Assembly: GCA_018303855.1 (NCBI GenBank)
Contig: JAGVXI010000013.1
Coordinates: 34,735 to 98,734, forward strand
DNA length: 64,000 nt
Direction: 5' to 3'
Origin: Candidatus Pacearchaeota archaeon
GTDB lineage: Archaea > Nanobdellota > Nanobdellia > Pacearchaeales > GW2011-AR1
Under the pieces are notes generated by a model that was not told the origin of the DNA, searched no databases, and worked only from the letters and a program-made list of their open reading frames with translations. Positions 4,629 through 63,999 of the stretch are shown in pieces. The position numbers were made by a program, and so were the translations under genes. The stretch's first letter is position 1; each line of letters starts with the position of its first letter.

Positions 4629-6458
4629 TTATTCCATCGGTCTTCCTGTAACTCTGCTTGAACCTCCGGTTATCTGTCCGCCAAGTTCCATTGGCAATCC
4701 GGAAAATCCTGCTCCAAAAGTTTGAAAATGAACTTGTGGTAGTGTTTCTCCATAGCCTGCAAAATAACTCTGCCTTAAACCTAAAGCCTGGTTCCAATAA
4801 GGTGTTTTAATTGAATAAATAGGAGATCCCATTGCTTCTAGTGATGTTGCAAAAGGGGAAGTTTTAAAGTGCTGCCACCAGTTTCCAGCTTCAATAAGTT
4901 TTTTAGCCTCAAATCCTTCTTTTCCAAGCTTTTTCATTATCTCTTTAAATGGAACATTTCCCATGCCCATTGGAAGTTCTGTGTGCTCAAAACCAAAATT
5001 ATCACTTAAGTGAATGTGTTTAAGATAAGGCTTGATTTTTTCTGATTCTTTAACAATATCTTTTTTTTCAAATCCGTATTTTCTCAGCATGTTAATATGT
5101 CCGACATCCCAGGTTACTCCAATAAGTTTTTCAGCTGCTTTTTTTGCTTCTCCTTTTGACATGCCTTCGTTAACTGCTTTTTCCACAAATGTTTCTCTTG
5201 CTTTTTCAACGATTTTTTTTAAGTCTTCTCCACGGGCAAAAGCTGTTCCTGCAGGAGGATTTTCAATAGAAACAATCGGAGCATTATTTCCAAATTTGTC
5301 ATAAGCATTAAACGCAACTTTCCCAAATGTTTCAGCTGCTTTGTCCATTGCAAACTCGTTTAATGGTTTGTGGACTTCTGGTGCATCAAATTCACTGAGC
5401 CTATTTATCATCTGCTGATATGCCATAGACTGCATTTTTGGGTCTCTTGTTGTCTGAGTTATCTGCCCAATTTTATCAGCCATATCTTTAAGTGCTTTTT
5501 TTTCTTCTGGTGTTCCAAATTTATATGCCTTATTAAAAGTAGCATTTAAATTTAATCTTATGTGATCAAGATACCTTTGCGCATTTAATATTTTATTATA
5601 TGCCTCTGCTGAAGTTGGAGTAAGAAGTTGTTCTGGATTTTTGGAGCTTAAAAGTTTTGGCATAATTTCTTGAAGCAATGGATAATTTTCATCTATTAAC
5701 CTGTCTGCTCTTTCTTTGTAAAAAACAACCTGAGATATATCATTATCCCATTCTGTGTCATTTATGGCTTTAACTTCTGCTTCTGCTGTAAATGGAATTC
5801 CTTTAGATATATCATAACCTGTTTTTTGCATAATTTTTTTACCTTCTGATGTTCTCCCACTAATTTCTTCTGGAATTGGATAATGCTTTGTTTCTCTTTT
5901 TACCCCTCTTATTTGCCCTGTTTCTTGATTAATAACCAGCATGCTTTCTGTTATTTCTTCTTTTTCTTTCATTCCAGGCTCTTTTATTTTATAAACTTCT
6001 GGAGCTGGTAAAACAGCTGAAGAGTGAAATGTAACATTTATATTTCCTTTTGAATCAAGTTCATGGCTTCTTTCAACAGCAAGAGCCATCTGCCTTTCTG
6101 CAGTCTGCCTGCCCGCTTCTGTATACCCCTCTTTTGTAATTCCAGAAGGTTCAATTAATGGGCCGTGCACTGTTAAGTCTACTCCTGTTAATTTTGCAAG
6201 TCTTTTAACTTCTTTTAAATGCTGTTGGGGAACAGATTCAAAAAGTTCATTAGAAATCAGTGTTACATCAACTACTTTTGCTCCAGAGGGAATTCTTGCT
6301 GCAACTGCTGAGATAATGTCTGCTGTTCGCGGGTCTGTTGGAAGTCCCAAACTGCCAGCAGCAACTCTATAGCCTGTAAAAAGGCTTCCATACTCAGAGT
6401 CAAATGTGGAGTATCCTCCTTGATAAATATCACTTACTTTAAAATAATTGTCTGCCAT
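4629..6458 (-). CDS. xylose isomerase-like TIM-barrel (sugar phosphate isomerase/epimerase, AP endonuclease 2 family) protein with a large internal insertion
   Basis: The C-terminal WDVGHINM...KHIHLSDN...ELPMGMGNVPF and N-terminal VDLTVHGPL resemble the two ends of the TIM barrel. About 300 aa lie between them. Inference from motifs only. Confidence 0.45.
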   Translation of the reverse strand: MADNYFKVSDIYQGGYSTFDSEYGSLFTGYRVAAGSLGLPTDPRTADIISAVAARIPSGAKVVDVTLISNELFESVPQQHLKEVKRLAKLTGVDLTVHGPLIEPSGITKEGYTEAGRQTAERQMALAVERSHELDSKGNINVTFHSSAVLPAPEVYKIKEPGMKEKEEITESMLVINQETGQIRGVKRETKHYPIPEEISGRTSEGKKIMQKTGYDISKGIPFTAEAEVKAINDTEWDNDISQVVFYKERADRLIDENYPLLQEIMPKLLSSKNPEQLLTPTSAEAYNKILNAQRYLDHIRLNLNATFNKAYKFGTPEEKKALKDMADKIGQITQTTRDPKMQSMAYQQMINRLSEFDAPEVHKPLNEFAMDKAAETFGKVAFNAYDKFGNNAPIVSIENPPAGTAFARGEDLKKIVEKARETFVEKAVNEGMSKGEAKKAAEKLIGVTWDVGHINMLRKYGFEKKDIVKESEKIKPYLKHIHLSDNFGFEHTELPMGMGNVPFKEIMKKLGKEGFEAKKLIEAGNWWQHFKTSPFATSLEAMGSPIYSIKTPYWNQALGLRQSYFAGYGETLPQVHFQTFGAGFSGLPMELGGQITGGSSRVTGRPME

Positions 6459-48868: not shown

Positions 48869-51163
48869 TCAAATCCTCTTTCTTCTTAATAAATTAGCAT
48901 TTGTAACAACAGTTATACTTGATAAAGCCATTGCAATCTCTGCAATAATAGGATGAAGCAAACCCGCAACTGCAACAGGAATGGCAATTGTGTTATATGC
49001 AAAAGCCCAGAATAAATTCTGCTTTATTTTTGAGAAAGTTGCCTTGCTTAAGTTTATTGATTGAACAACTCCATTTAATGAACCTTTAACAAGAACAATA
49101 TCGCCTGCTTCTATTGCAATATCTGTCCCTGTTCCCATTGCAATTCCAACATTGCTTTCTTTAAGTGCAGGGGCGTCATTTATTCCATCTCCAATAAACG
49201 CAACCATTGCTTGTTTTTTCAATTCATTGATTTTTTTTGCCTTGTCTTCTGGCAACACATTTGCTATAACTTCTTTAATTCCAACTTGTTTTGCAATTGC
49301 TTGGGCTGTTTTTTCATTATCCCCAGTTATCATAATTGTTTTATAATCTTCCATATTTAATTTATTAATGGCTTCAATTGAATCTTCTTTAACAGCATCT
49401 GCAATTCCAATAATTCCTATTGCCTTTCCGTTATCAGAAACAATAATTGTAGTAAACCCTTTGCTTTCAAATTCATTTATTTTATTATTAAATTCTTTAA
49501 GATTTATCCCTCTCTCTTTCATTAGGGTTGAATTTCCTATAACTATGCTTTTTTTGCCTATTTCTCCCTCAACTCCTCTTCCTCTTAAAATCTTAAATGC
49601 TTTTACTTCCCTGTATTTTTTTAAATTAGCTTTTTCAACAACAGCTTTTGATAATGGATGCTCACTTAGCTTTTCCAAGCTTGCTGCAACTTCCATTAAA
49701 TATCCTTCCCCAATTTCTGCATAAACTGCCCTAACTTCTGGCTTTCCTTTTGTTATTGTTCCTGTCTTGTCAAACACAATTATTTTAATCTCTTTCATTG
49801 TTTGGATTGCTTCGCCCTTTCTTATGAGAATGCCTCTTTTTGCACCCATACCACTTCCAACCATTAAAGCAGTAGGTGTTGCCAAACCCAAAGCACAAGG
49901 ACATGCGATAACTAAAACAGAAACAGCAACACCTATGGCCCTGCTTAAATCCTTATTAAAATAAAACCAGGCAATAAAAGTTAAAATTGTTATAACTAAA
50001 ACAACAGGCACAAAAACACTTGTTATTTTGTCAGCAAGTGCTTGTATAGGAATTTTTGTTCCCTGGGCTTGCTCAACAAGTTTTATAATATTGGATAAAA
50101 AAGTATCTTTTCCTATTTTAGTTGCTTTAATATACAAAACCCCGTCTTGATTAAGTGTTGCACCAATTACTTTGTCTCCTTTGGCTTTATCAATAGGCAA
50201 GCTTTCACCAGTAACCATGCTTTCATCAACAGCACTTTCTCCTTTAACTATGACTCCGTCTGTTGGAATTTTTTCTCCTGGCTTCACTATTATAACATCA
50301 TTAATTTTAACTTCCGAAATAGAAATCTCAAATTCTTTGTTATTTCTTAAAACAAGGGCATTTTTCGCGCCTAATTCAAGAAGTTTTTTTATTTCTTGGC
50401 TCGCTTTACCTCTTGCCTTCACTTCAACATACTTTCCTGTTAGGAAAAAGGCCATAATCATTGCACTTATGCCAGAATAATCTTGAACATTTATGAAGAA
50501 ACTTAAAACTCCAGTTAAATAAGCAACAACAGTCCCAAGTGCAATCAAAGAATCCATATTAAAATAAAAACTAGTAAATCCCTTTAATCCGCCCTTGAGG
50601 GTTTGAAAACCTAAAACAAATATAATCGGAAAAGAGATAATAAGCAAAACAAATGTCATTTGTTCCGGTGTATTAAACACCTTTAAGCCAAATAATCTTT
50701 CAGAAAACATAATAATAGCTATTGGAATAGTTATCAACCAAGCCCAAATAGTCTTTTTAAACCAAGATTTAATTTCCTTTTCCTCAACACTTCCATGCAC
50801 ATGTTCATTCATCTCTTCGTGGTGTGGATGCTCTTCTTTTTTATGTTCAGAATGTTTTAAATGTTCAATCTGCCTATTATCCTGTCTATCATCAGTAGGC
50901 TCTTTATATTCAATTGACTTATCTTTATTATCCTGCTTATCTTCTTCAAACTCAATTTTTTTAGCGGCATAACCTCCAACTCTTGAAACAGCTTTTTTCA
51001 AATCACTTTCACTAATATCCCCCTCAATTTCAACAAAGCCCTTCTTGGCCATTAAATTAACACTTGCACTTTTTACGCCTTTAACTTTCTTTAAGCTTTT
51101 TTCTATATTAGATGCACAACTAGCACAATGCATTCCTTCAATTTGTATTGTTGCTTTTTTCAT
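48869..51163 (-). CDS. copA: copper-translocating P1B-type ATPase
   Basis: N-terminal HMA domain [12 protein letters not shown], His-rich linker, TM CPC motif [29 protein letters not shown]. Confidence 0.85.
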
Positions 51164-51545: not shown

Positions 51546-52154
51546 TTATTTTTCTGATTCTTCTTCAATAATATTTTTAATCAGCTCTTTGTTTGCCCCA
51601 AAAACCTTTCTTCCGTTTATGAAAAAAGTTGGGGTTCCCTGAACATCTAGCATCTTTCCGTCATTTAAATCTCTTTCCACTTCGTATTTATACTTTTCAG
51701 AATCTAAACATGAATTAAATTGTTCCTTATTCAACTCGATTTGTATCGCATAGAGCTTTAAACTTTCTTTATCCAGCTTATTTTGATTTTCAAATAAAAT
51801 GTCATGATACTGCCAGAATTTTCCCTGTTCATTGGCACATTCAGCTGCTTCTGCCGCAATAAAAGAATTCTCATGTATTGTTAGGGGAAAATTCCTGTAA
51901 TAAAATACAACATTCTGTTCATTTAAGATTTCATTTATTATAGGTAATGAAGCTTTGCAGGCAGGACACTGAAAATCTGAAAATTCTATGATGATAGTGC
52001 TTGAATCTGAATTTCCTTTTGCAGGGTTTATTCCATTGCCAACATTTTTATAAATCTCTATTGCAGATTTCGGAAGACTAATGTAAATTAGAACCCCAGT
52101 TAATAATATTATAACTAACCCAATAATTACTACTCCTTTATTATCTCCATTCAT
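51546..52154 (-). CDS. DsbA-family thiol:disulfide oxidoreductase, N-terminal TM anchor
   Basis: FSDFQCPACKAS (CPAC active site) and GTPTFFINGRKV cis-Pro region. Confidence 0.65.
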   Translation of the reverse strand: MNGDNKGVVIIGLVIILLTGVLIYISLPKSAIEIYKNVGNGINPAKGNSDSSTIIIEFSDFQCPACKASLPIINEILNEQNVVFYYRNFPLTIHENSFIAAEAAECANEQGKFWQYHDILFENQNKLDKESLKLYAIQIELNKEQFNSCLDSEKYKYEVERDLNDGKMLDVQGTPTFFINGRKVFGANKELIKNIIEEESEK

Positions 52155-52674: not shown

Positions 52675-52941
52675 TTATTTAAAATAATCCAAGCAGTATA
52701 AAGTATTTTGATGATGACTTAAATGCTCTTTCCAGTCATTAATGCTCTCCTCATATTCTGGTAACTTGCATTCTGCCGGAATAGGATCTAAGCGATATTT
52801 GTCTAGTTCTTGGTTATTTTGTTTATTAATATTTTGAACAACCTTCCCTGTTGCATTTACTTTAATGAACACAGCTACTGTTAATGACAGAATAACAAAA
52901 ACCAGCCCAATATATATTAGATCTTTATTTATCGTTATCAT
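52675..52941 (-). CDS. small membrane-anchored protein with Cys/His-containing ectodomain
   Basis: N-terminal TM then CKLPEYEESINDWKEHLSHHQNTLYC. Confidence 0.35.
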   Translation of the reverse strand: MITINKDLIYIGLVFVILSLTVAVFIKVNATGKVVQNINKQNNQELDKYRLDPIPAECKLPEYEESINDWKEHLSHHQNTLYCLDYFK

Positions 52942-53371
52942 TTTTCTTTTCTTTGTTTACTTGGTGATATATAACCCCAATTCCAATAATGTTTGAAGCA
53001 ACACCGATAAGAAGAAATTGTAATGTGTATTTGGATAATACTGATAATCCAGAAATTCCAATAACTGCTCCAAGAAACGGGAGTATATTAAGAATATAAT
53101 GGCTGCAGCATAAAATCATGCTAATTGCAGAAATCCCCCCAGATGCAACACTTGTTGAACAGCTTATTGCGTTAAGAGAATTATAGTATGTGAATAAACC
53201 GATTTGCAAACCAAATCCCCCAATAAGCAGAATAATGAGAATGTAATATCTTCTTATAATCTCTGTTGCCATTAAAGGGAAACCTAAGATGTAAAGCACA
53301 ATTAAATTTATAGTTAAAACTATCAAAATTGCACCAATTCCATAAATCCATGCTTTTGTTTTTATGTCCAT
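52925..53371 (-). CDS. polytopic membrane protein
   Basis: 148 aa, about 4 TM, with CC pair (MILCCSHY). Confidence 0.35.
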   Translation of the reverse strand: MDIKTKAWIYGIGAILIVLTINLIVLYILGFPLMATEIIRRYYILIILLIGGFGLQIGLFTYYNSLNAISCSTSVASGGISAISMILCCSHYILNILPFLGAVIGISGLSVLSKYTLQFLLIGVASNIIGIGVIYHQVNKEKKNDNDK

Positions 53372-54018: not shown

Positions 54019-54408
54019 TTATCTTGCTTTATCCACAATTTCTTTAATATCTTTTTCTACTTCTTCAGTTTTTTTTCGACTAACCTCAGGAAAGAATTGG
54101 GAAATTATTGTAGGTTTCATTCCAGCAATCTTTATCTTTCCATTTTCTTCAAGGACATTTATTTTACACGGCATACAAAGAGATATTAACCTGTTTTTAT
54201 TAAGAAAAATATTTGCGTGTTTTCCAGAGCAAATCTCAACTATCTTTAATGGTTTCTGCTTAAATCCCTTTGCAGCCAATCGTTCTTGGATATCATAAAT
54301 CTGAAACAAACTCCAACCTTTTTGTTCAACTGCTTTCAGCACTGAAATAACAGCCTCATCAAAACTTTTATTGGTTTCAACAATATATGCAAAATCTTCT
54401 GTTTTCAT
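54019..54408 (-). CDS. DUF302-domain protein (cassette B)
   Basis: Paralog of 42766-43155. Confidence 0.65.
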   Translation of the reverse strand: MKTEDFAYIVETNKSFDEAVISVLKAVEQKGWSLFQIYDIQERLAAKGFKQKPLKIVEICSGKHANIFLNKNRLISLCMPCKINVLEENGKIKIAGMKPTIISQFFPEVSRKKTEEVEKDIKEIVDKAR

Positions 54409-54737
54409 TTTTTTCTACGCCCTATACCTCTTCCAGAACTCTTTATCTGTTTAATCAACCAAACTATCAGTAGAACTAAAATAATAATCACAAGAATAAT
54501 AAATAACCAACTAAACACATTGTAACCACTATAGTAGCTTCCATTTATTCCTTGCATCATGCTACCCTGTATATTTTGTCCTCCCATCATACCTCCAGAA
54601 CCGCCCATTATTCCACCAGAACCCATCATGTTGCCCCCCATCATCATTTGCATCATGCCACTCGATTCACCACAATAAATTCCTTTAGCCATGTTTATAT
54701 GAACCTGTCTTAAACTTTCACTTCCTTCTCCACCCAT
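54405..54737 (-). CDS. Met/Gly-rich tail-anchored small protein (cassette B)
   Basis: MGGEGSESLRQVHINMAKGIYCGESSGMMQMMMGGNMMGSGGIMGGSGGMMGG... then C-terminal TM LLIVWLIKQI. Confidence 0.5.
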   Translation of the reverse strand: MGGEGSESLRQVHINMAKGIYCGESSGMMQMMMGGNMMGSGGIMGGSGGMMGGQNIQGSMMQGINGSYYSGYNVFSWLFIILVIIILVLLIVWLIKQIKSSGRGIGRRKK

Positions 54738-54918
54738 GCATTTGTTCCATGTAATAATCCCCAATAGCCTCAAACTGTGCATCAGTAAAATTGTTGCAGC
54801 TAATATTAGAATTAATAAGCTGTTTTGTTTCAGCAAAACTCTGTTCATGAGCTGATACTAAGAATGCAATTAGTAGTAATATTCCAAAGGCGAATATTGT
54901 TAGTGTTATTTTTTTCAT
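54718..54918 (-). CDS. small secreted protein with signal peptide (cassette B)
   Basis: MKKITLTIFAFGILLLIAFLVSAHEQS...SCNNFTDAQFEAIGDYYMEQMHGWRRK. GGAGGT sits 7 nt upstream of the internal ATG chosen as start. Confidence 0.5.
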   Translation of the reverse strand: MKKITLTIFAFGILLLIAFLVSAHEQSFAETKQLINSNISCNNFTDAQFEAIGDYYMEQMHGWRRK

Positions 54919-54997
54919 TTTGATACCTCCATTACATTTATTATTACTATATCTGGAATAAGTATCTTGCCACTTAAACCGTTTTAAACCATTATTA

Positions 54998-55468
54998 TCA
55001 TCTTTGCAAATATACATTGTAAGTTTTTCCTGTCCTTTTTCTTTGAATTAAATTTCTCTTATCTAAATTAGTTAAAATTGTTGAAATCTTGGCTTTACTC
55101 CAGTCTAATCTAAACCTTAATGAATCTTGGGTAATTTCCCCAGCTTTTTTTATCTCATCTAAAATATCTTTTTCATCTTTTGACAAAGCTTTTCTTAAGA
55201 TACTATATTCTTTTTCTTTATTTTCATGCTTAAATAAATAAAAGGAAACAAAAAAAACCACAAGAAGTGCAATAATTAATGATATCAAGGTTATAACCGT
55301 AGATTTATTATTAGAACTCCTTATCTGATCCATCATATCTGCCATCGAAGTTGGCTCCTTAACAAAAATTTGGCTTAATATCAAAAGCATAATAAGATAT
55401 AATATAACTCCCACTAACAGAATAAACAATACCTTTGACACATTGTTTATATTTTGTAAATTATTCAT
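54998..55468 (-). CDS. membrane-anchored winged-HTH protein
   Basis: N-terminal TM plus C-terminal ...ISTILTNLDKRNLIQRKRTGKTYNVYL. Similar architecture to 63027-63506. Confidence 0.45.
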   Translation of the reverse strand: MNNLQNINNVSKVLFILLVGVILYLIMLLILSQIFVKEPTSMADMMDQIRSSNNKSTVITLISLIIALLVVFFVSFYLFKHENKEKEYSILRKALSKDEKDILDEIKKAGEITQDSLRFRLDWSKAKISTILTNLDKRNLIQRKRTGKTYNVYLQR

Positions 55469-58473: not shown

Positions 58474-58968
58474 TTATTCCTTACAGCAATCCAAAAGCTT
58501 TTTTATTGAAGAAAAAATCTTGCTTTCTCCTTTTTTATCAGCAACTGCTTCTATTACCTCTTTTCCAGGAGAATTTAATGCCCAAAACAATGCATAAAGC
58601 TCTGCTGAATCCTTGTAAAGTGACTTTGCTTCTTTTTCTTTTCCTTCTTGCAATAATCTGTTCCCAACTTCATATAACCTCATGCTTGAAGCTAAAAAAT
58701 GCTTGCTCATGCACCACTTTTCGCTTTCATCATTGTCTTTAACTATTAAAGCAAGAAGCTTTTTCCTCAATTCTCTTACAGTTTTTAATATATCAAGAAA
58801 TTTATCATCCTGGGTTTTTACATAACTAAAAAAACAATGCTCTTCCAATGATACAAGGTTCATTAAAGCTATGCTCAAATCCTCCCACGCACTTATATCT
58901 AATCTATCTTTAGATTTTATCTTTTCGATGCTGTTAATAAAATTTTTAACCTCCATTTTAAAGAGCAA
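58474..58968 (-). CDS. hypothetical protein
   Basis: 164-aa ORF. No motif. Confidence 0.3.
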   Translation of the reverse strand: MLFKMEVKNFINSIEKIKSKDRLDISAWEDLSIALMNLVSLEEHCFFSYVKTQDDKFLDILKTVRELRKKLLALIVKDNDESEKWCMSKHFLASSMRLYEVGNRLLQEGKEKEAKSLYKDSAELYALFWALNSPGKEVIEAVADKKGESKIFSSIKKLLDCCKE

Positions 58969-59554
58969 ATTGAATTATTAAAGCTGCAACAACTAGCAAG
59001 AAGAAAGTTAATAAAATCCCTTGAAATGGGATATTTCTTCCATACATTTTTTGCTTAATTTTTTTATTTAATCCAGGCGAAACAAATACAATAATTGCCC
59101 CAAGTAAACTGCTTGTTAAAGAATAATTGACAGCATAGGTTACTCCATACTCTCCAATAAATGGAAGGTATAGTGGTCCTATTGCTTTAAATATAGGCAA
59201 TAATGGCAACAAAGTTGTTAAAAAAACAATTGTTATAATCGCTGTTTTTTGAAATGGAATATACCTCTTTTTTGGGATCCTTGCAAACCACATACCCATT
59301 GACATTGCAAAAGCTCCTATAAACAAAGCAATAATTACCTTGCTAATTCCAAGCCAAACAGCTCCTGCAGCAGCTGCCCCTGCTCCAATTGTGCATAAAG
59401 GGCAATGTGCAGAGATAAATTCCAGGGAACTTATTAGCATAAAAGGCAATATTGTTGATAGTAAAACCCCCTTATTATCTTTGTTCTTTAATTTAAACAT
59501 GACAGTTAACGTACTTTTAATGCTTAATGTCCAATTAAAACTTTTTTTTAACAT
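58958..59554 (-). CDS. DsbB-like membrane protein (CPLC in first extracytoplasmic loop)
   Basis: AHCPLCTIGAGAAAAGAVWLGI resembles the DsbB/BdbC CxxC region. About 4 TM. Inference. Confidence 0.4.
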   Translation of the reverse strand: MLKKSFNWTLSIKSTLTVMFKLKNKDNKGVLLSTILPFMLISSLEFISAHCPLCTIGAGAAAAGAVWLGISKVIIALFIGAFAMSMGMWFARIPKKRYIPFQKTAIITIVFLTTLLPLLPIFKAIGPLYLPFIGEYGVTYAVNYSLTSSLLGAIIVFVSPGLNKKIKQKMYGRNIPFQGILLTFFLLVVAALIIQFAL

Positions 59555-59555
59555 T

Positions 59556-60038
59556 TTATATCCTCATGAATTCTTCATAACTTCCATCATTATTCACAGC
59601 ATAAACAACAAAATCTCCGGTTTTTTTACCAAGCATTCCTGGCGCGCCAGAAGGCATCCCAGGCATTGCAATTCCCTTAATATCTGGTTTTTCTTGTAAA
59701 AGTTTTTCAATAGCCTCTAAAGGAACATGCCCTTCCACAAAATAATTTCCAATAATAACTGTATGACAACTTTCCATTTCAGATGGAATTCCATACTGCT
59801 TCTTAATTGAATCTAAAGATTCTAGATTTACAACCTGGGTATTTGGATTTCCCTTGCTTTTAAAATAAGTAATATAAACATCGCAACACCCGCAGCTCAT
59901 GGATTTATAAACTTTCATTTCACCATTAAAACTGCCAATGGTTTCAAAACTGCTCACACTATTGCGTGTAAAAATAAAAGCCAATGCTATTAGTATTACT
60001 ATGCTTCCAATTACCCAAACTAGTGTTTTCTTTTTCAT
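59556..60038 (-). CDS. CopG/DUF411 family copper-binding protein
   Basis: N-terminal TM, then SCGCC (CxCC) and C-terminal MPGMPSGAPGM motif. Confidence 0.55.
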   Translation of the reverse strand: MKKKTLVWVIGSIVILIALAFIFTRNSVSSFETIGSFNGEMKVYKSMSCGCCDVYITYFKSKGNPNTQVVNLESLDSIKKQYGIPSEMESCHTVIIGNYFVEGHVPLEAIEKLLQEKPDIKGIAMPGMPSGAPGMLGKKTGDFVVYAVNNDGSYEEFMRI

Positions 60039-60093: not shown

Positions 60094-60258
60094 TTAGCAG
60101 CCGCCAACCATTCCGCCATAACTGCTTTTCGCAACTTGTCCTGCTGATTGTCCTGCAGAGATAACCCCTCCAGTTGGGGAGCTTCTGAAAAACACAACAT
60201 AGATAACCGCTAAAACAAGTATAGCAATTACAATCCATAAGATTAACTTTTTATCCAT
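60094..60258 (-). CDS. small membrane-anchored protein ending in M-V-G-G-C
   Basis: MDKKLILWIVIAILVLAVIYVVFFRSSPTGGVISAGQSAGQVAKSSYGGMVGGC. Not in the ORF track (54 aa). The overlapping track ORF 60044-60238 is in the wrong frame. Confidence 0.4.
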   Translation of the reverse strand: MDKKLILWIVIAILVLAVIYVVFFRSSPTGGVISAGQSAGQVAKSSYGGMVGGC

Positions 60259-60332
60259 TATATTGTTTTTAAAATTTATTTCCTCCTTTCATCTTTTCTT
60301 TACTGAATGTGAAAAAACAACAATCTGCCATT

Positions 60333-60548
60333 TTAACATCCCCCAACCATTGTTGGTGCGCCATTTAGATTACTGCTTTGCTGAACTCTTGCAGGAATGG
60401 TTCCATGCATTTCATAATTCATTACTTCGTTGGCTGTCCAACCAGTTGTATCAATTTTTCCAGCTCCTCCTCTGAATAGAATTACATAAATAACTGCAAT
60501 TACAAGTATAGCAATTACCATCCATAAAACCACATTTTTTGTATCCAT
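60333..60548 (-). CDS. small membrane-anchored protein ending in M-V-G-G-C
   Basis: MDTKNVVLWMVIAILVIAVIYVILFRGG...NLNGAPTMVGGC. The N-terminus is paralogous to 60094-60258. Confidence 0.45.
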   Translation of the reverse strand: MDTKNVVLWMVIAILVIAVIYVILFRGGAGKIDTTGWTANEVMNYEMHGTIPARVQQSSNLNGAPTMVGGC

Positions 60549-60632
60549 GTTTTTTCTCCTATTTTCTTTGATTGATTAAGAATAGTTAATTTTTAACATG
60601 CTAAAGGGAAAAATAAAAAATAAAAGCCCCGT

Positions 60633-61313
60633 TTAGCAACCACCAACCATCCCTCCAGATGCCTGGCCCTTTTCAATTCCTCTGTATTTATTGCTTGCCA
60701 AGTTAATGTAGTTGATTTCAATTCCCTGACTTTTTAATACCTGAGCTTTACCTTCATGAATTCCTGGGAAAAACAAAACTTTCCATTTCCCTACTTCTTC
60801 AAGTATCTCTTCATCTGTGAATTCATCTCCATGGTAAAGAATCAAGTACTTTGCCACTCCACGCATAGCATAACTGTGAGCACATCCACATGCTGGTTCT
60901 CCATTCTCAAATATAACAGCTCTTGCTCCACAGCAAAATTCGCATGAGATTCCATTCTCTAACTTATAAAGAATGTTAACATATCTCTCAAAGTTAGCGC
61001 CTGTAAGTGTTTCACTCATATCAATCTTTCCCAAAGTATTTATTGTTTTATCGGCAAGTTGAGGGTTATTTGGGGAAATATCATCATACTTGATTTTCAA
61101 TTCTTCTCCATACACCCTTGGTATCCCTGTTGGAATTATCTCAGAAGCCGGAATAGTTTCAATAACCTGTCCTGTAAACGAACTATCTCCGCCAGGCGAT
61201 TTGCCAAAACTAAACATTAGTAAGCCAGCAAGGACAATCACTGCAGCAATCTGCATGTAAAATCCAGTATTTGACTTGGTTTTTTCCTTTTCGTTTTCTT
61301 CTGTTTCTGCCAT
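60633..61313 (-). CDS. membrane-anchored Cys-rich protein ending in M-V-G-G-C
   Basis: N-terminal TM, SCEFCCGARAVIFENGEPACGCAHS motif, C-terminal ...ASGGMVGGC. Confidence 0.45.
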   Translation of the reverse strand: MAETEENEKEKTKSNTGFYMQIAAVIVLAGLLMFSFGKSPGGDSSFTGQVIETIPASEIIPTGIPRVYGEELKIKYDDISPNNPQLADKTINTLGKIDMSETLTGANFERYVNILYKLENGISCEFCCGARAVIFENGEPACGCAHSYAMRGVAKYLILYHGDEFTDEEILEEVGKWKVLFFPGIHEGKAQVLKSQGIEINYINLASNKYRGIEKGQASGGMVGGC

Positions 61314-62121: not shown

Positions 62122-62937
62122 TTACCGCTTTATCTTCCACAATAATAAGATGATTAAGATGTAGTAAGCATAACTAATTAACTCTAACAATGAAGGGTCT
62201 CCATTATACCCAAACAGTTCTTTAAATAATCCTCCAATGCCTCCTTTTTCATGAAGCAAAGGATAACTGCCATCAGGATTTACTTCTGGATTAATATCCC
62301 AAACATGTTCTACGATAGCTGGGAGTATGCCAGCCTCTTGAAATTCATGAATACTCTGGGCAACAAGTCCTGCTGAAAATAAAATAAGGAGTATGCTTGT
62401 TATAGTGAAAAAATATTTTATGTTAATTTTCATTGAACCTACAAAAAGCAGGTAACCTAAGAATATTGCAGCTATTACCCCTAAAAATGCCCACATAAAA
62501 TTAAATCCAGCTGACGCAAAACTTGCTGCACCTAAAAAAATGACTGTTTCAATTCCTTCTCTTAAAACAGCAATAAAAACCAATAAAAATAATCCCACTT
62601 TGCTTGCTTCTTCAATATTTTTTAAGACTCTTTGTTTTATATCTTCTGCAATGTGCTTCTGCCTTATCATCCATAGAATCATTGTTGTTAACAAAACAGC
62701 TCCAACAAGCATTGTTATTCCTTCAAATATCTCTTCTTCTTTTCCTCCAAATCCGCCATAAATCTCAATAAAGATTAGCGCTCCAATAATGCTTGTAACT
62801 ATCCCAAAACCAATTCCAACATAAACTACATTGTTATACTTTGTTTGCTTTGTCCTTGCAAGATAACTTAGAACAATCCCAACTACTAAAGCCACTTCTA
62901 AAGTTTCTCTAAATGTTATAATAAATTCTGATATCAT
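62122..62937 (-). CDS. FTR1-family high-affinity iron permease (EfeU-like)
   Basis: Two RExxE motifs (FRETLEV and LREGIETVIFL) in a polytopic membrane protein. Confidence 0.7.
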   Translation of the reverse strand: MISEFIITFRETLEVALVVGIVLSYLARTKQTKYNNVVYVGIGFGIVTSIIGALIFIEIYGGFGGKEEEIFEGITMLVGAVLLTTMILWMIRQKHIAEDIKQRVLKNIEEASKVGLFLLVFIAVLREGIETVIFLGAASFASAGFNFMWAFLGVIAAIFLGYLLFVGSMKINIKYFFTITSILLILFSAGLVAQSIHEFQEAGILPAIVEHVWDINPEVNPDGSYPLLHEKGGIGGLFKELFGYNGDPSLLELISYAYYILIILLLWKIKR

Positions 62938-63026: not shown

Positions 63027-63506
63027 CTAATTCTTTAGTACAACAATGTTATTCATGCCTCTGCGCTTTCTTTCTATAAGTTGTTTAGCCTCTAATTTAT
63101 CTAATAGCCTTGTGACTTTTACTTTTCCGATTCCCATTTTTTCCATTAAAGAAGCTTGAAATATTGCCCCATTTTCCTCTTGAAGCAAACTTATCACCTT
63201 CTTTTCCTCTTTATCCAAATTTTTTAAGTCGAGCTTCTTTTTCTTTTCTTTTTCTTTAATTTTCTGCACAACTATTTTTTCAGGCTGTTTAGTAAACATT
63301 AAGAATAATCCAATGATAAAAACCAACCCAGCAATTGATAAACTAATCCATGTTTGAACACCAATAGTATCAAACATTGAGCATGTAGGGCCATGGGTGC
63401 ATGTTTGCCCAACAATGCTTTTTAATGCAGAATTAAAAATTAGCACAATCGCCACTATAACCACTGCAATCCCAATAACAAGATAACCCACATTTTTATT
63501 CTCCAT
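63027..63506 (-). CDS. membrane-anchored winged-HTH protein
   Basis: TM region containing CTHGPTC, then C-terminal ...VTRLLDKLEAKQLIERKRRGMNNIVVL. Confidence 0.45.
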   Translation of the reverse strand: MENKNVGYLVIGIAVVIVAIVLIFNSALKSIVGQTCTHGPTCSMFDTIGVQTWISLSIAGLVFIIGLFLMFTKQPEKIVVQKIKEKEKKKKLDLKNLDKEEKKVISLLQEENGAIFQASLMEKMGIGKVKVTRLLDKLEAKQLIERKRRGMNNIVVLKN

Positions 63507-63525: not shown

Positions 63526-63999
63526 CTATCCTTCAACAATTATTTTTCCTTTCATATAAGGATGCGGTTTACAATGGTATGCATAAGTCCCTGGATTATT
63601 AAATGTTTTTGCATAAGTTTCTCCATTTTTTAATAAAGGAGAATCTATTTCATTGCCAGTATCTGAAGTAACTGTATGCCCTACACTATCCATATTTGTC
63701 CAAACAACTGAAGTTCCAGCTTTTATCTTTAATTCTTTTGGTGAATAATCAAAACCTTTAATAACCACACTCTCGGTTTTAGCATATTCTGCACTACCAG
63801 CATCTATATCCCCAGCATCAATATTATCCACACTAATCTCATTGGTGTTTTCGTTTCCAGTATTATCTATGTTTGTATCAGCTGTTCCACCATTATCTTT
63901 CATCGTATTTGTTGTATTATTAGGAGTTATTAGAAAATAACCTGCTACAGCAACAATTAAAACCACAGCTATTATGCCTACTATTAGACTTGTTTTCAT
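63526..63999 (-). CDS. cupredoxin (plastocyanin/azurin-like blue copper protein), membrane anchored
   Basis: GHTVTS ... YAYHCKPHPYMKG provides the His, Cys, His, Met type-1 Cu ligand set. Confidence 0.7.
   Translation of the reverse strand: MKTSLIVGIIAVVLIVAVAGYFLITPNNTTNTMKDNGGTADTNIDNTGNENTNEISVDNIDAGDIDAGSAEYAKTESVVIKGFDYSPKELKIKAGTSVVWTNMDSVGHTVTSDTGNEIDSPLLKNGETYAKTFNNPGTYAYHCKPHPYMKGKIIVEG

Follow-up and report, generated by a model that had tools for sequence, protein, structure and literature searches.

A C-terminal [M/Q]VGGC tail shared by adjacent membrane-anchored proteins encoded among copper genes in DPANN archaea and CPR bacteria

Why should three neighboring genes, coding for proteins of 54, 71 and 226 residues, end in the same five amino acids? 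The question arises from a 64,000-nucleotide stretch of a Candidatus Pacearchaeota MAG (the window, to which all coordinates refer), where three adjacent open reading frames all end in MVGGC:

60094-60258, minus strand: small tail protein type a, 54 aa, an annotated gene (MBS3085995.1)
60333-60548, minus strand: small tail protein type b, 71 aa
60633-61313, minus strand: large tail protein, 226 aa; predicted order of parts: cytoplasmic N-terminus, membrane helix, N-terminal subdomain, CcmH-like bundle, linker, MVGGC-COOH

By re-reading the sequence and scanning all six frames, we recovered these reading frames at the positions and with the 3′ ends (ATGGTTGGCGGCTGCTAA, ATGGTTGGGGGATGTTAA and ATGGTTGGTGGTTGCTAA) that an initial annotation of the window had given. 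Its further observations of synonymous variation in the tail codons, of N-terminal hydrophobic anchors in all three translations and of CEFCCG and CGCAHS Cys clusters in the large protein were likewise borne out, as were the neighbors that it had named: a DUF411 protein (E = 5.8e-25), a C2H2/DUF3105 membrane protein, FTR1 and a cupredoxin. In the six-frame scan of the whole window, only 3 of 8122 stop-terminated segments end in GGC, and these are the three tail genes; beyond them, MVGG does not occur in any frame. The MVGGC ending on three neighbors is real, and chance is excluded as its source. All three genes are called in the public record of the MAG (MBS3085995-97), each as a 'hypothetical protein'.

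We found that the 226-aa protein belongs to an unannotated and undescribed family, with 1778 matches in the database that form 269 clusters at 50% identity and with hosts among the DPANN archaea and CPR bacteria. Pfam and NCBIfam scans assigned no family to the three proteins, to ten distant members or to all 131 aligned members, a profile search against PDB sequences gave no match, a literature search for MVGGC and QVGGC returned nothing relevant, and a scan for relatives on viral contigs found none. The suspicion of the initial annotation that the family had not been described is upheld by these searches. Its tail, [L-P-x]-[M/Q]-V-G-G-C-COOH, stays constant while the remainder of the large protein diverges to about 35% identity; the LP before the tail is not found in DPANN-type tails.

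The motif is kept across homologs: of the 120 relatives closest to the large protein, 113 end in MVGGC. The GGC ending is present in 106, and the G-x-C ending in 124, of 150 representatives taken at 50% identity. These 124 all carry G(-3) and C(-1), always with Cys as the final residue, and 113 of them carry V(-4), while position -5 is occupied by M (86) or Q (33) and L, I and V are nearly absent there. In the alignment of relatives (n = 131), G224 and C226 are invariant and V223 is at least 90% conserved. The family's tail contains one Cys only. In type-1 copper sites, Met and Gln are the pair of residues seen as the weak axial ligand.

What kind of protein carries this tail? The large protein has a short N-terminus, an N-terminal subdomain with the motif IPxGxPxxYGxEL and a flexible linker, and four of its parts can be placed on the window:

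61203-61268, minus strand: membrane helix, approximately residues 16-37 (AF2 helix 16-37, predicted N-in/C-out)
60771-61001, minus strand: CcmH-like three-helix bundle in the predicted structure, residues 105-181
60876-60944, minus strand: Cys/His cluster C124-E-F-C127-C128 ... C142-G-C144-A-H146, at least 90% conserved in 131 aligned relatives
60636-60650, minus strand: MVGGC tail, residues 222-226, followed by TAA

The positive-inside rule places the tail outside the cell, since large relatives have 3.0 K+R before the helix and 0.8 after it (more before than after in 81, fewer in 3). Some family members carry CC or His-rich cytoplasmic N-terminal prefixes, similar to those of the small proteins. 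The AF2 model of the large protein has a pLDDT of 91, and the tail retains a value of about 86; as judged from pLDDT alone, the tail may dock on the Cys cluster.

According to the model, the large protein carries a CcmH-like fold, and it includes the three-helix-bundle periplasmic domain of CcmH/NrfF (PF03918). At the profile level, hhalign aligned the family with a 9-sequence CcmH/NrfF alignment (score 18.0, 57 columns, P = 0.014, probability 3%), and the same score was reached by 1 of 200 column-shuffled controls. The match lays CE[YF]CC on LRCPxC, continues through helix 2 and the start of helix 3, and stops before KWKxLFFP; against the single E. coli CcmH sequence, 25 columns were aligned. 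The CxxC (C124, C127) falls on the position of the LRCxxC site, where L-R is replaced by [I/G]-S and where a third Cys and an inserted CxCxH hairpin have been added, so that the Cys/His cluster consists of a CxxC(C) after helix 1 together with this hairpin. The Pfam CcmH model (PF03918) matched neither the window protein nor any of the 131 members, and a Foldseek search against the PDB gave no match with E < 1. Mutual information between tail position -5 and the columns of the core singled out no clear partner, with residue 148 a weak second.

The small genes proved to be regular companions of the large one. Directly downstream of the large gene, 81 of 88 related loci encode between one and three single-helix small proteins with the same tail. 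All 110 distinct small ORFs of related loci end in MVGGC, hence with Cys as their last residue; among them all three stop codons are used and, for V, G, G and C, each of the synonymous codons. Median dN/dS is 0.47 for type-a and 0.30 for type-b small ORFs, in keeping with the purifying selection that the initial annotation had made a test of its proposal. Type a consists of a membrane helix, a linker that is 70% S/A/G/Q/T and MVGGC-COOH. Type b, with 27 homologs that share invariant columns, places between its helix and a Ser/Gly linker the invariant segment DTTGWTxNExMNYEMHGTIPAR, which includes MNYEMHG. By the positive-inside rule, small proteins are oriented N-in/C-out in 84 cases versus 7. 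Their cytoplasmic prefix has at least two Cys in 18 of 110 and at least three His in 5 of 110. The small proteins are minimal tail carriers, composed of one membrane helix, a flexible linker of 20-65 residues and the tail.

We found that the large and small tails evolve in concert. At loci where the large protein has a Q-type tail, the small partner is also Q in 7 of 8 cases, the exception being locus L076, where a large protein with QVGSC is paired with small ones that end in MVGGC. Conversely, Q tails occur in 0 of 110 small proteins from the first 107 loci, where nearly all large proteins are M-type. The residues that flank the tail also agree within a locus, and the codons differ (Ser TCG versus AGC). 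On a crude tree, the M/Q state switched about 19 times. At one locus (L025) the large protein has no tail, and the small partner alone has one. Such concerted evolution points to a single reader of the tails. Tails that sit on separate genes and evolve together offer a clean natural example of peptide-reader co-evolution.

The surroundings of the tail genes in the window are rich in genes for copper and for thiol chemistry:

59556-60038, minus strand: CopG-type DUF411 protein carrying CGCC, encoded next in the operon (PF04214, above cut-off)
58958-59554, minus strand: cl3, a polytopic membrane protein with an invariant AHCPLC (519 homologs; 29 of 38 loci)
58474-58968, minus strand: cl10, a helical protein ending in DCCKE, which alternates at this position with cl7 in other loci
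52925-53371, minus strand: cl6, a membrane protein with CC[S/A/L]H[H/Y], which also adjoins distant family members
48869-51163, minus strand: CopA, a P1B-type ATPase (Pfam E1-E2_ATPase, Hydrolase and HMA; HMA GMHCASC, CPC, YN and MALSS motifs)
63027-63506, minus strand: membrane-anchored MarR/DUF7343 regulator (Pfam) with the outside loop CTHGPTC, adjoining the large gene in 25 of 38 loci
54998-55468: second MarR/DUF7343 copy
51546-52154, minus strand: membrane-anchored DsbA-like thioredoxin-fold protein with CPAC (PF13462, E = 1.8e-27)

In 29 of 38 loci, a DUF411 gene is found no further than 2.5 kb from the large gene. The cl3 gene, some homologs of which are fused to rhodanese, invariably comes after DUF411; in the window, the true start of cl3 is probably near 59500. 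The alternative to cl10, cl7, is a four-helix membrane protein ending in ECCKRW. Read in translation, CopA contains the HMA domain and the CPC, YN and MxxSS motifs of a P1B-1 ATPase, which we take to assign it to the Cu(I)/Ag(I) type, and a P-type ATPase cluster is found in 20 of 27 loci. Orthologous loci also encode a multicopper oxidase, a CsoR-type repressor and Met/His-rich proteins, distant loci encode Trx-like CxxC proteins directly after the small gene, and one locus alone (L128) has both DsbD_TM (E = 1.4e-16) and Redoxin genes. The same context contains regulators of the ArsR type and Cys membrane proteins that resemble Mer. Copper specificity is read from these neighbors, and other thiophilic metals may be handled instead. 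GC content and skew revealed no compositional island in the window. A link between thiol redox and copper has precedent in the Salmonella Scs system, whose thiol-redox proteins protect against copper. The initial annotation had missed this thiol-redox setting, together with the CcmH-like fold, the small genes as operon partners and the concerted evolution of the tails.

Several known systems come close to this arrangement. CcmH, for instance, is a thiol reductase anchored in the membrane, with a peptide Cys motif as its target (PMC3884852). The large protein differs from the system I thiol reductase CcmH/NrfF in its N-terminal anchor and extra N-terminal subdomain, in the missing LR, and in its added third Cys, CxCxH hairpin and obligatory [M/Q]VGGC tail; no Ccm/Nrf genes were recognized, either among the conserved neighbors at approximately 107 close loci or among the tabulated genes of 12 distant ones. 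The PCYCGC proteins of PF13798 resemble the large protein in being membrane-anchored and in carrying two Cys clusters (PCYCGCGGH ... CxxC) ahead of a pair of CcmH-like helices, but they lack the [M/Q]VGGC tail. In a Micrarchaeia locus, a PCYCGC gene lies directly upstream of a family member, and hhalign relates the C-terminal half of its product to a CcmH/NrfF profile with 94% probability (E = 1.4e-7). When the family itself was set against a PCYCGC member, hhalign gave no significant match, with only the ACGCAH and YCGCGGH stretches alike, and the PF13798 model matched neither the window protein nor any of the 131 members at E ≤ 0.1.

C-terminal Cys tails that pass soft metals are found in MerA (a Cys pair), Ctr1 (HCH) and CCS (CXC), where they are cytoplasmic, offer two close ligands and do not recur on separate small carriers. 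The likeness lies in a short Cys motif at the extreme C-terminus of a flexible stretch and in a proposed delivery of a thiophilic metal to a Cys-rich site, whereas the tails described here face outward, have one Cys and are duplicated on small membrane-tethered carriers. CopG (DUF411) and the Scs proteins also face outward, are rich in Cys or have a thioredoxin fold, and link thiol chemistry with copper in resistance clusters; unlike the tail proteins, they have other folds and motifs, no conserved C-terminal pentapeptide and no tail-only partners.

How might these parts work together? We give even chances to the reading that the three genes form an outward-facing, membrane-anchored, thiol-based copper-handling module within a copper-defence island. 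The CxxC(C) and the added CxCxH hairpin of the large protein would form a Cys/His-rich pocket in its CcmH-like domain, onto which its own [M/Q]VGGC-COOH tail would fold back. The tail would be the mobile arm of a relay, whose terminal Cys thiolate would capture the Cu(I) that CopA would release on the outer side of the membrane. One Cys and one Met make a weak Cu(I) site by themselves, and the capture could be assisted by the free carboxylate and by the Met or Gln at position -5. A tail that is copper-loaded, or oxidized by copper, would then dock in the pocket, including in trans from a small carrier, and the CcmH-like domain would take over the metal or re-reduce the tail cysteine. The neighboring thioredoxin-fold proteins (CopG/DUF411, Trx-like CxxC and DsbA-like) could act as partners, and the membrane CxxC proteins (cl3, and DsbD_TM in one lineage) could connect the relay to the cytoplasm. 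Its logic, including the direction of thiol or metal transfer that we infer, would follow the DsbD-CcmG-CcmH-apocytochrome chain, the tail standing in for the apocytochrome cysteines.

A broader proposal is more tentative, and we would not yet expect it to hold in full: [M/Q]VGGC-COOH may be a new, portable five-residue C-terminal tag with an obligatory terminal Cys, borne by one CcmH-derived reader and by up to three (at least one) minimal membrane-tethered carriers, with tags that co-evolve per genome in an unrecognized cell-surface copper/thiol relay typical of DPANN and CPR and lacking a described counterpart in model organisms.

The same observations can be explained in other ways. A module devoted purely to thiol redox seems unlikely, though it is the likeliest of these alternatives; the CcmH-like domain would be an oxidoreductase, the tail Cys its substrate, a regulatory pseudo-substrate or a sacrificial thiol, and copper would matter only as a thiol oxidant, with no metal bound by the tail. 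The CcmH-like fold with CxxC at the equivalent position, the Trx-like, DsbA-like, DsbD_TM and Redoxin neighbors, the single Cys of the tail and the Scs precedent are all consistent with such a module, but the restriction of position -5 to Met and Gln, the MNYEMHG of type b and the CC/His-rich cytoplasmic prefixes resemble metal ligands, and a CxxC oxidoreductase needs no extra CxCxH hairpin. The initial annotation had offered three readings of the motif, and the one in which it supplies metal ligands is the best supported of them by context, namely the copper genes and the CC/His-rich N-termini. It had also offered a processing or attachment signal. The sortase-type part of that suggestion is excluded because nothing follows the Cys, while recognition by some enzyme may still apply: an enzyme encoded elsewhere could cleave the tail (for example, after Gly-Gly) or lipidate, cross-link or attach a cofactor to its Cys, and the mature proteins would then differ from their genes. 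The strictly terminal motif with invariant G and C, and the concerted evolution that implies one reader, fit processing equally well; the tail is portable, being found on proteins made up otherwise of just a membrane helix and a linker; and L(-8), M(-5) and GG (the first two at -7 and -4 from the cleavage point) resemble the hydrophobic spacing of double-glycine leaders. Against this, no protease, transferase or sortase is conserved in the neighborhood, the tail is predicted to be extracellular, where ATP-dependent chemistry is unavailable, AF2 places it confidently on its own domain, and no membrane helix or basic cluster follows the motif as in known sorting signals. We regard such a signal as improbable.

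Two further explanations have very little probability. The large protein could be an ordinary CcmH of cytochrome c maturation with an incidental tail, but CcmF, CcmC and CcmE were unrecognized among the conserved neighbors and the annotated genes of distant loci, the LR of LRCxxC is absent while a Cys/His hairpin and a tail are added, Pfam CcmH matches none of the members, the anchor sits at the N-terminus and not at the C-terminus, and the conserved partners are copper genes. Slighter still is the chance that the small ORFs are RiPP-like precursors, the last of the three earlier readings. They are indeed short and clustered and share a Cys-containing end; however, that reading is unsupported because the conserved neighbors include no maturase (no radical SAM, YcaO, Lan or PEARL-type enzyme, nor an export protease, lies nearby) and because the peptides are membrane-anchored at the N-terminus. 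Moreover, their conserved part is C-terminal, and the same tail occurs on a folded 226-aa protein.

We also compared the tail proteins with established terminal signals and carriers and rejected each candidate. The sorting signals LPXTG/sortase, PGF-CTERM/archaeosortase and GlyGly-CTERM/rhombosortase do not fit a sole helix that is N-terminal or a neighborhood with no sortase-like conserved member. Ubiquitin-like or ThiS-type Gly-Gly carriers were set aside, as the fold is a helical bundle and not a beta-grasp, the tail is predicted outside and no E1-like or JAMM partner is nearby. A double-glycine leader would call for a C39 peptidase partner, which is absent nearby, and again the tail is predicted outside the membrane. 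For LanD-type decarboxylation of a C-terminal Cys, there is no flavoprotein nearby and the residues before the Cys are unfit; for heme attachment, there is no His beside the Cys; and for a type IV pilin-like signal peptide, the hydrophobic stretch lacks a preceding Gly at -1.

If the copper-handling reading is correct, a tethered terminal-cysteine arm and its CcmH-derived acceptor would be a new class of component in copper homeostasis, and a cytochrome-c thioreduction fold would have been reused in loci without recognized Ccm partner genes. A function would be given to three 'hypothetical' families, those of the large protein and of the small carriers and, by extension, PF13798. With only five residues, the tail is within easy reach of peptide synthesis, which opens the hypothesis to a direct check. 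The genomes of DPANN archaea and CPR bacteria are very small, yet many of them keep this multi-gene island, which suggests that it answers a genuine need at the exposed surface of their cells.

Three adjacent minus-strand ORFs were found where the initial annotation had placed them: a large protein (226 aa, 60633-61313), a type b small protein (71 aa, 60333-60548) and a type a small protein (54 aa, 60094-60258). Each closes with MVGGC and a TAA stop, and the codons are those that annotation had given. When all six frames of the 64-kb window are scanned, these are the only 3 of 8122 stop-terminated segments ending in GGC, and the string MVGG occurs in no frame outside them. All three are annotated as genes of the Candidatus Pacearchaeota MAG (MBS3085995-97), each as a 'hypothetical protein'. 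All called genes from 48.9 to 64 kb of the window are on the minus strand, and the island has the following order.

Genes of the minus-strand island, in order
63526-63999, minus strand, cupredoxin
63027-63506, minus strand, MarR/DUF7343 regulator, membrane-anchored, CTHGPTC loop outside
62122-62937, minus strand, FTR1-family permease
between FTR1 and the large tail protein, minus strand, C2H2/DUF3105 membrane protein
60633-61313, minus strand, large tail protein
60333-60548, minus strand, small tail protein, type b
60094-60258, minus strand, small tail protein, type a
next, minus strand, DUF411 protein (CopG type, CGCC)
next, minus strand, AHCPLC membrane protein
58474-58968, minus strand, helical protein ending DCCKE
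next, minus strand, CPTC membrane protein
next, minus strand, ArsR and methyltransferase
54998-55468, minus strand, second MarR/DUF7343 membrane regulator
54405-55017, minus strand, Met/Gly-rich protein
next, minus strand, DUF302 protein and ArsR
next, minus strand, CCSH membrane protein
next, minus strand, DsbA-like protein
last, minus strand, P1B ATPase

The P1B ATPase carries GMHCASC, CPC, YN and MALSS motifs, which make up the Cu(I)/Ag(I) signature. Each of the two winged-helix MarR/DUF7343 proteins combines a pair of N-terminal membrane helices with a CTHGPTC loop facing outward and resembles a metal-sensing transcription factor tethered to the membrane. At 32% GC the window is AT-rich, with uniform composition (GC 0.29-0.36) and no compositional anomaly or island signature over positions 1-64000, where ARAGORN also found no tRNA genes. 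The Met/Gly-rich gene is apparently frameshifted (54405-55017): ORF 54718-55017 ends in GDYYMEQMHGWRRK and a stop, and its continuation, ORF 54405-54848, contains MGGEGSESLRQVHINMA and then a Met/Gly-rich stretch. Intact orthologues in loci around relatives of the large gene (denoted by L-numbers) are single proteins of 162-184 aa (e.g. L004 2936-3424 and L014 13217-13720), and the break in the window copy reflects either a pseudogene or a mistake in the assembly.

The large protein has 1778 database relatives, and the motif is kept among them: the tail is MVGGC in 113 of the 120 closest (the remainder are MVGDC, MVGAC, MIGSC and MVGEC). Searched exhaustively, 1.84 billion cluster representatives yielded 269 family clusters at 50% identity; a GGC end is present in 106 and a G-x-C end in 124 of the best 150 of these 269 representatives. 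Counting back from the terminal Cys (-1), those 124 have C at -1 and G at -3 without exception, G at -2 in 106 (otherwise S, D, A or E), V at -4 in 113, M, Q, W, F or I at -5 (86, 33, 3, 1 and 1), P at -7 in 91 and L at -8 in 71, and no residue follows the Cys. The tail is constant though the core is only 30-40% identical and the linker is unalignable. Further near-invariant residues are G63, P65, Y68, G69, R110, Y111, C124, E125, C127, C128, C142, C144, H146, S147, R151, G152, W177, K178, F182 and P183. Archaeal members are all DPANN (Woese-, Pace-, Nano-, Nanohalo- and Micrarchaeia) and bacterial members are CPR (Saccharibacteria, Nealsonbacteria, Magasanikbacteria), together with one FKBP fusion from a Desulfobacterales MAG; a viral contig scan found no relatives. 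Neither Pfam nor NCBIfam has a model that matches the window protein, any of ten distant members or any of the 131 members aligned, no PDB sequence matches the family, and a full-text literature search for MVGGC or QVGGC returned nothing relevant. The large family, its small carriers and the tail motif are undescribed in these sources, as had been supposed.

The loci that we collected around the large gene's relatives number 26 from genomes and 80 from metagenomes. Small ORFs directly follow this gene in 81 of the 88 loci that extend 400 nt or more downstream (one in 56, two in 22 and three in 3), each with a single N-terminal membrane helix and an MVGGC end; only three other tail-ending ORFs were found in the collected loci, just upstream or elsewhere on the contig. 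Type a proteins consist of a helix and a linker that is 70% S, A, G, Q and T, and type b proteins have an invariant DTTGWTxNExMNYEMHGTIPAR segment ahead of the tail. All 110 distinct small ORFs encode ATG-GTN-GGN-GGN-TGY and a stop, a stricter tail than that of the large proteins, where MIGSC, MVGAC and MVGDC variants are present. All synonymous codons and all three stop codons are in use, and pairwise dN/dS has a median of 0.47 in type a and 0.30 in type b. Consequently, the small ORFs are real genes whose tail is held at the protein level, and the purifying selection expected by the initial annotation is borne out.

The proposed N-terminal anchors are likewise recovered. Lys and Arg are enriched on the N-terminal side of the helix, with 2.8 before versus 0.9 after it in small proteins and 3.0 versus 0.8 in large ones; the N-terminal side has the higher count in 84 versus 7 small and 81 versus 3 large proteins. 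This bias indicates a predicted N-in/C-out topology, with the tails and the large protein's domain facing outward. A predicted cytoplasmic prefix containing CC (MEDCCK, MDCCEN and similar) is present on 18 of the 110 small proteins and a His/Glu-rich prefix on 5; CC- or His-type prefixes were flagged in 14 of 150 large-family representatives, one of them a truncated protein without a membrane helix.

A confident AlphaFold2 model of the large protein (131-sequence alignment; mean pLDDT 91, pTM 0.78) has helices at 16-37 (membrane), 84-100, 105-120, 145-161, 167-181 and 183-195, and a short hairpin in the 121-144 interval. Over the final 16 residues, tail included, pLDDT is about 86, above expectation for a free end. 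CcmH is a thiol reductase with a single anchor and a three-helix bundle; it has its LRCPKC motif in the loop that follows helix 1, and it reduces the CXXCH cysteines of apocytochrome c (PMC3884852). Aligned by hhalign to a CcmH/NrfF profile (9 sequences, E. coli K-12 and plasmid-borne genes), the family core matched over 57 columns (score 18.0, P 0.014, probability only 3%), a score matched by 1 of 200 column-shuffled controls (mean 10.9, sd 2.1). The alignment pairs RYI..I..isCEyCC with ...l..eLRCPxC, and HSxAMRGLakYLi..h..e.tDeqIL with SNaxxAxDLRxxI..G.SDxEI. The large protein is therefore probably a distant CcmH relative outside PF03918, distinguished by a third Cys, by insertion of a CxCxH hairpin and by an additional subdomain at the N-terminus.

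Directly upstream of a family member in a Micrarchaeia locus (L117) is a PF13798 'PCYCGC' protein (5480-5986). Its C-terminal half (CVTCQN...GKSLKEIRDYIDRKY) matches the CcmH/NrfF profile well (hhalign probability 94%, E 1.4e-7), and thus this uncharacterised family may also be CcmH-derived; its direct hhalign comparison with the large-protein family was not significant.

Of the loci in which the large gene is flanked by 2.5 kb on either side, 38 in all, a small tail gene is present in 34, DUF411 in 29, the AHCPLC protein in 29, a MarR membrane regulator in 25 (also recorded as adjoining it), a protein ending ECCKRW in 19, the CCSH protein in 17 and the DCCKE protein in 12. The suggested co-occurrence accordingly stands for copG/DUF411, and not for the FTR1-cupredoxin pair, which is present in the window and in none of the related loci. 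Such a pairing is known in copper-dependent iron uptake systems. A P-type ATPase cluster lies at most 8 kb away in 20 of 27 loci; related loci additionally contain a multicopper oxidase and recurrent Met/His-rich proteins, and in CPR a CsoR-type repressor comes right after the large gene. In distant lineages the small tail gene is followed by a 310-414-aa protein with at least one CxxC and weak thioredoxin-family matches. L128 (3001-6807) encodes, in order, large tail, small tail, Trx-like 413-aa, DsbD_TM (E 1.4e-16), two small proteins and Redoxin, which is a near-complete Ccm-like thioreduction set, with no Ccm or cytochrome gene among its annotated genes. Two DsbA-like genes are present in L117. 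None of the loci examined contains a recognised Ccm or Nrf gene, c-type cytochromes being outside the search.

In several island proteins two vicinal Cys residues lie close to the C-terminal end (DCCKE, ECCKRW, PGCCH, KGCCH; window 58474-58968, minus strand, L015 9930-10382, L014 10824-11102, L128 6143-6307), and terminal Cys motifs are a general habit of the island. The sequence C.TPPGYTDAQWREHMSHHPDQYAxCL characterises a single-helix protein of 64-84 aa that recurs (L117 8058-8297, L123 1017-1256, L126 3878-4072, L128 6320-6574) and has no assigned family; its T-D-x-Q-W...HM.HH resembles the type b motif and the GDYYMEQMHPGE stretch of the Met/Gly-rich protein. L016 1266-2792 encodes a 508-aa IscU/NifU-like protein with, judging by its sequence, an apparent intein-type insert.

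The most informative new result is that large and small tails evolve in concert. Where the large protein ends in QVGGC, the small partner does too in 7 of 8 loci (L117, L122, L123, L124, L125, L126 and L128), with L076 the exception; the first 107 loci, where large proteins are M-type in almost every case, contributed 110 small proteins, and none of these has a Q tail (naive Fisher test, 1e-9). Within a locus, flanks also match between large and small proteins (PSQVGGC in L123-L125, ATQVGGC in L128, AP.MVGGC in L119). The codons of matching tails differ (Ser TCG versus AGC, AGC versus TCT), so recent gene conversion is not the cause. On a crude core-domain tree of 127 representatives, M/Q state changed at least about 19 times, and most sampled Q-type proteins have M-type nearest neighbours, so the co-switches were probably several independent events. 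In L025 (7890-8787) the large protein stops before the tail (...NKYRNE), and an overlapping downstream 95-aa small gene with a predicted cytoplasmic HCC prefix alone carries MVGGC, a natural case of a tail supplied in trans. Together, the Q-Q matching, the matched flanks and L025 imply that the same partner reads the large and small tails of one genome.

We give roughly an even chance to a mechanism whereby the tail is a Cu(I)/thiol relay arm docking on the CcmH-like domain. The terminal Cys would capture Cu(I) released at the membrane surface, assisted by the free carboxylate and by Met or Gln at -5, where L, I and V are almost absent; Met and Gln are also the pair known to serve type-1 copper sites as weak axial ligand. 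The tail would then dock in a pocket of the CcmH-like domain, which would move the metal into its own Cys/His cluster or re-reduce a copper-oxidised tail. CopG or Trx-like proteins would be the exchange partners and membrane CxxC proteins (or DsbD_TM) the link to the cytoplasm, mirroring DsbD -> CcmG -> CcmH -> apocytochrome. What the analysis shows is the invariant and strictly terminal pentapeptide, the outward topology signal, the flexible linkers, the Cys/His-rich CcmH-like domain with a tail modelled at moderately high confidence, the copper and thiol-redox neighbours and the concerted evolution of the tails; the relay itself is inferred.

A purely redox role, with no metal bound by the tail, is unlikely. 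Recognition of the tail by a processing or modifying enzyme is quite improbable; no maturase, protease or sortase is conserved among the neighbours in the loci examined. That the large protein is an ordinary CcmH is contradicted by its gene context and very improbable, and RiPP precursors, which the gene context likewise contradicts, receive almost no credence.

The components of the proposed relay resemble CcmH-type oxidoreductases, C-terminal Cys metal-transfer tails and cop-operon accessory proteins. To our knowledge, no other system combines a single reader domain with between one and three minimal proteins carrying a terminal tag of five residues that co-evolves, and we tentatively suggest that this arrangement could represent portable C-terminal tagging of a genuinely new type.
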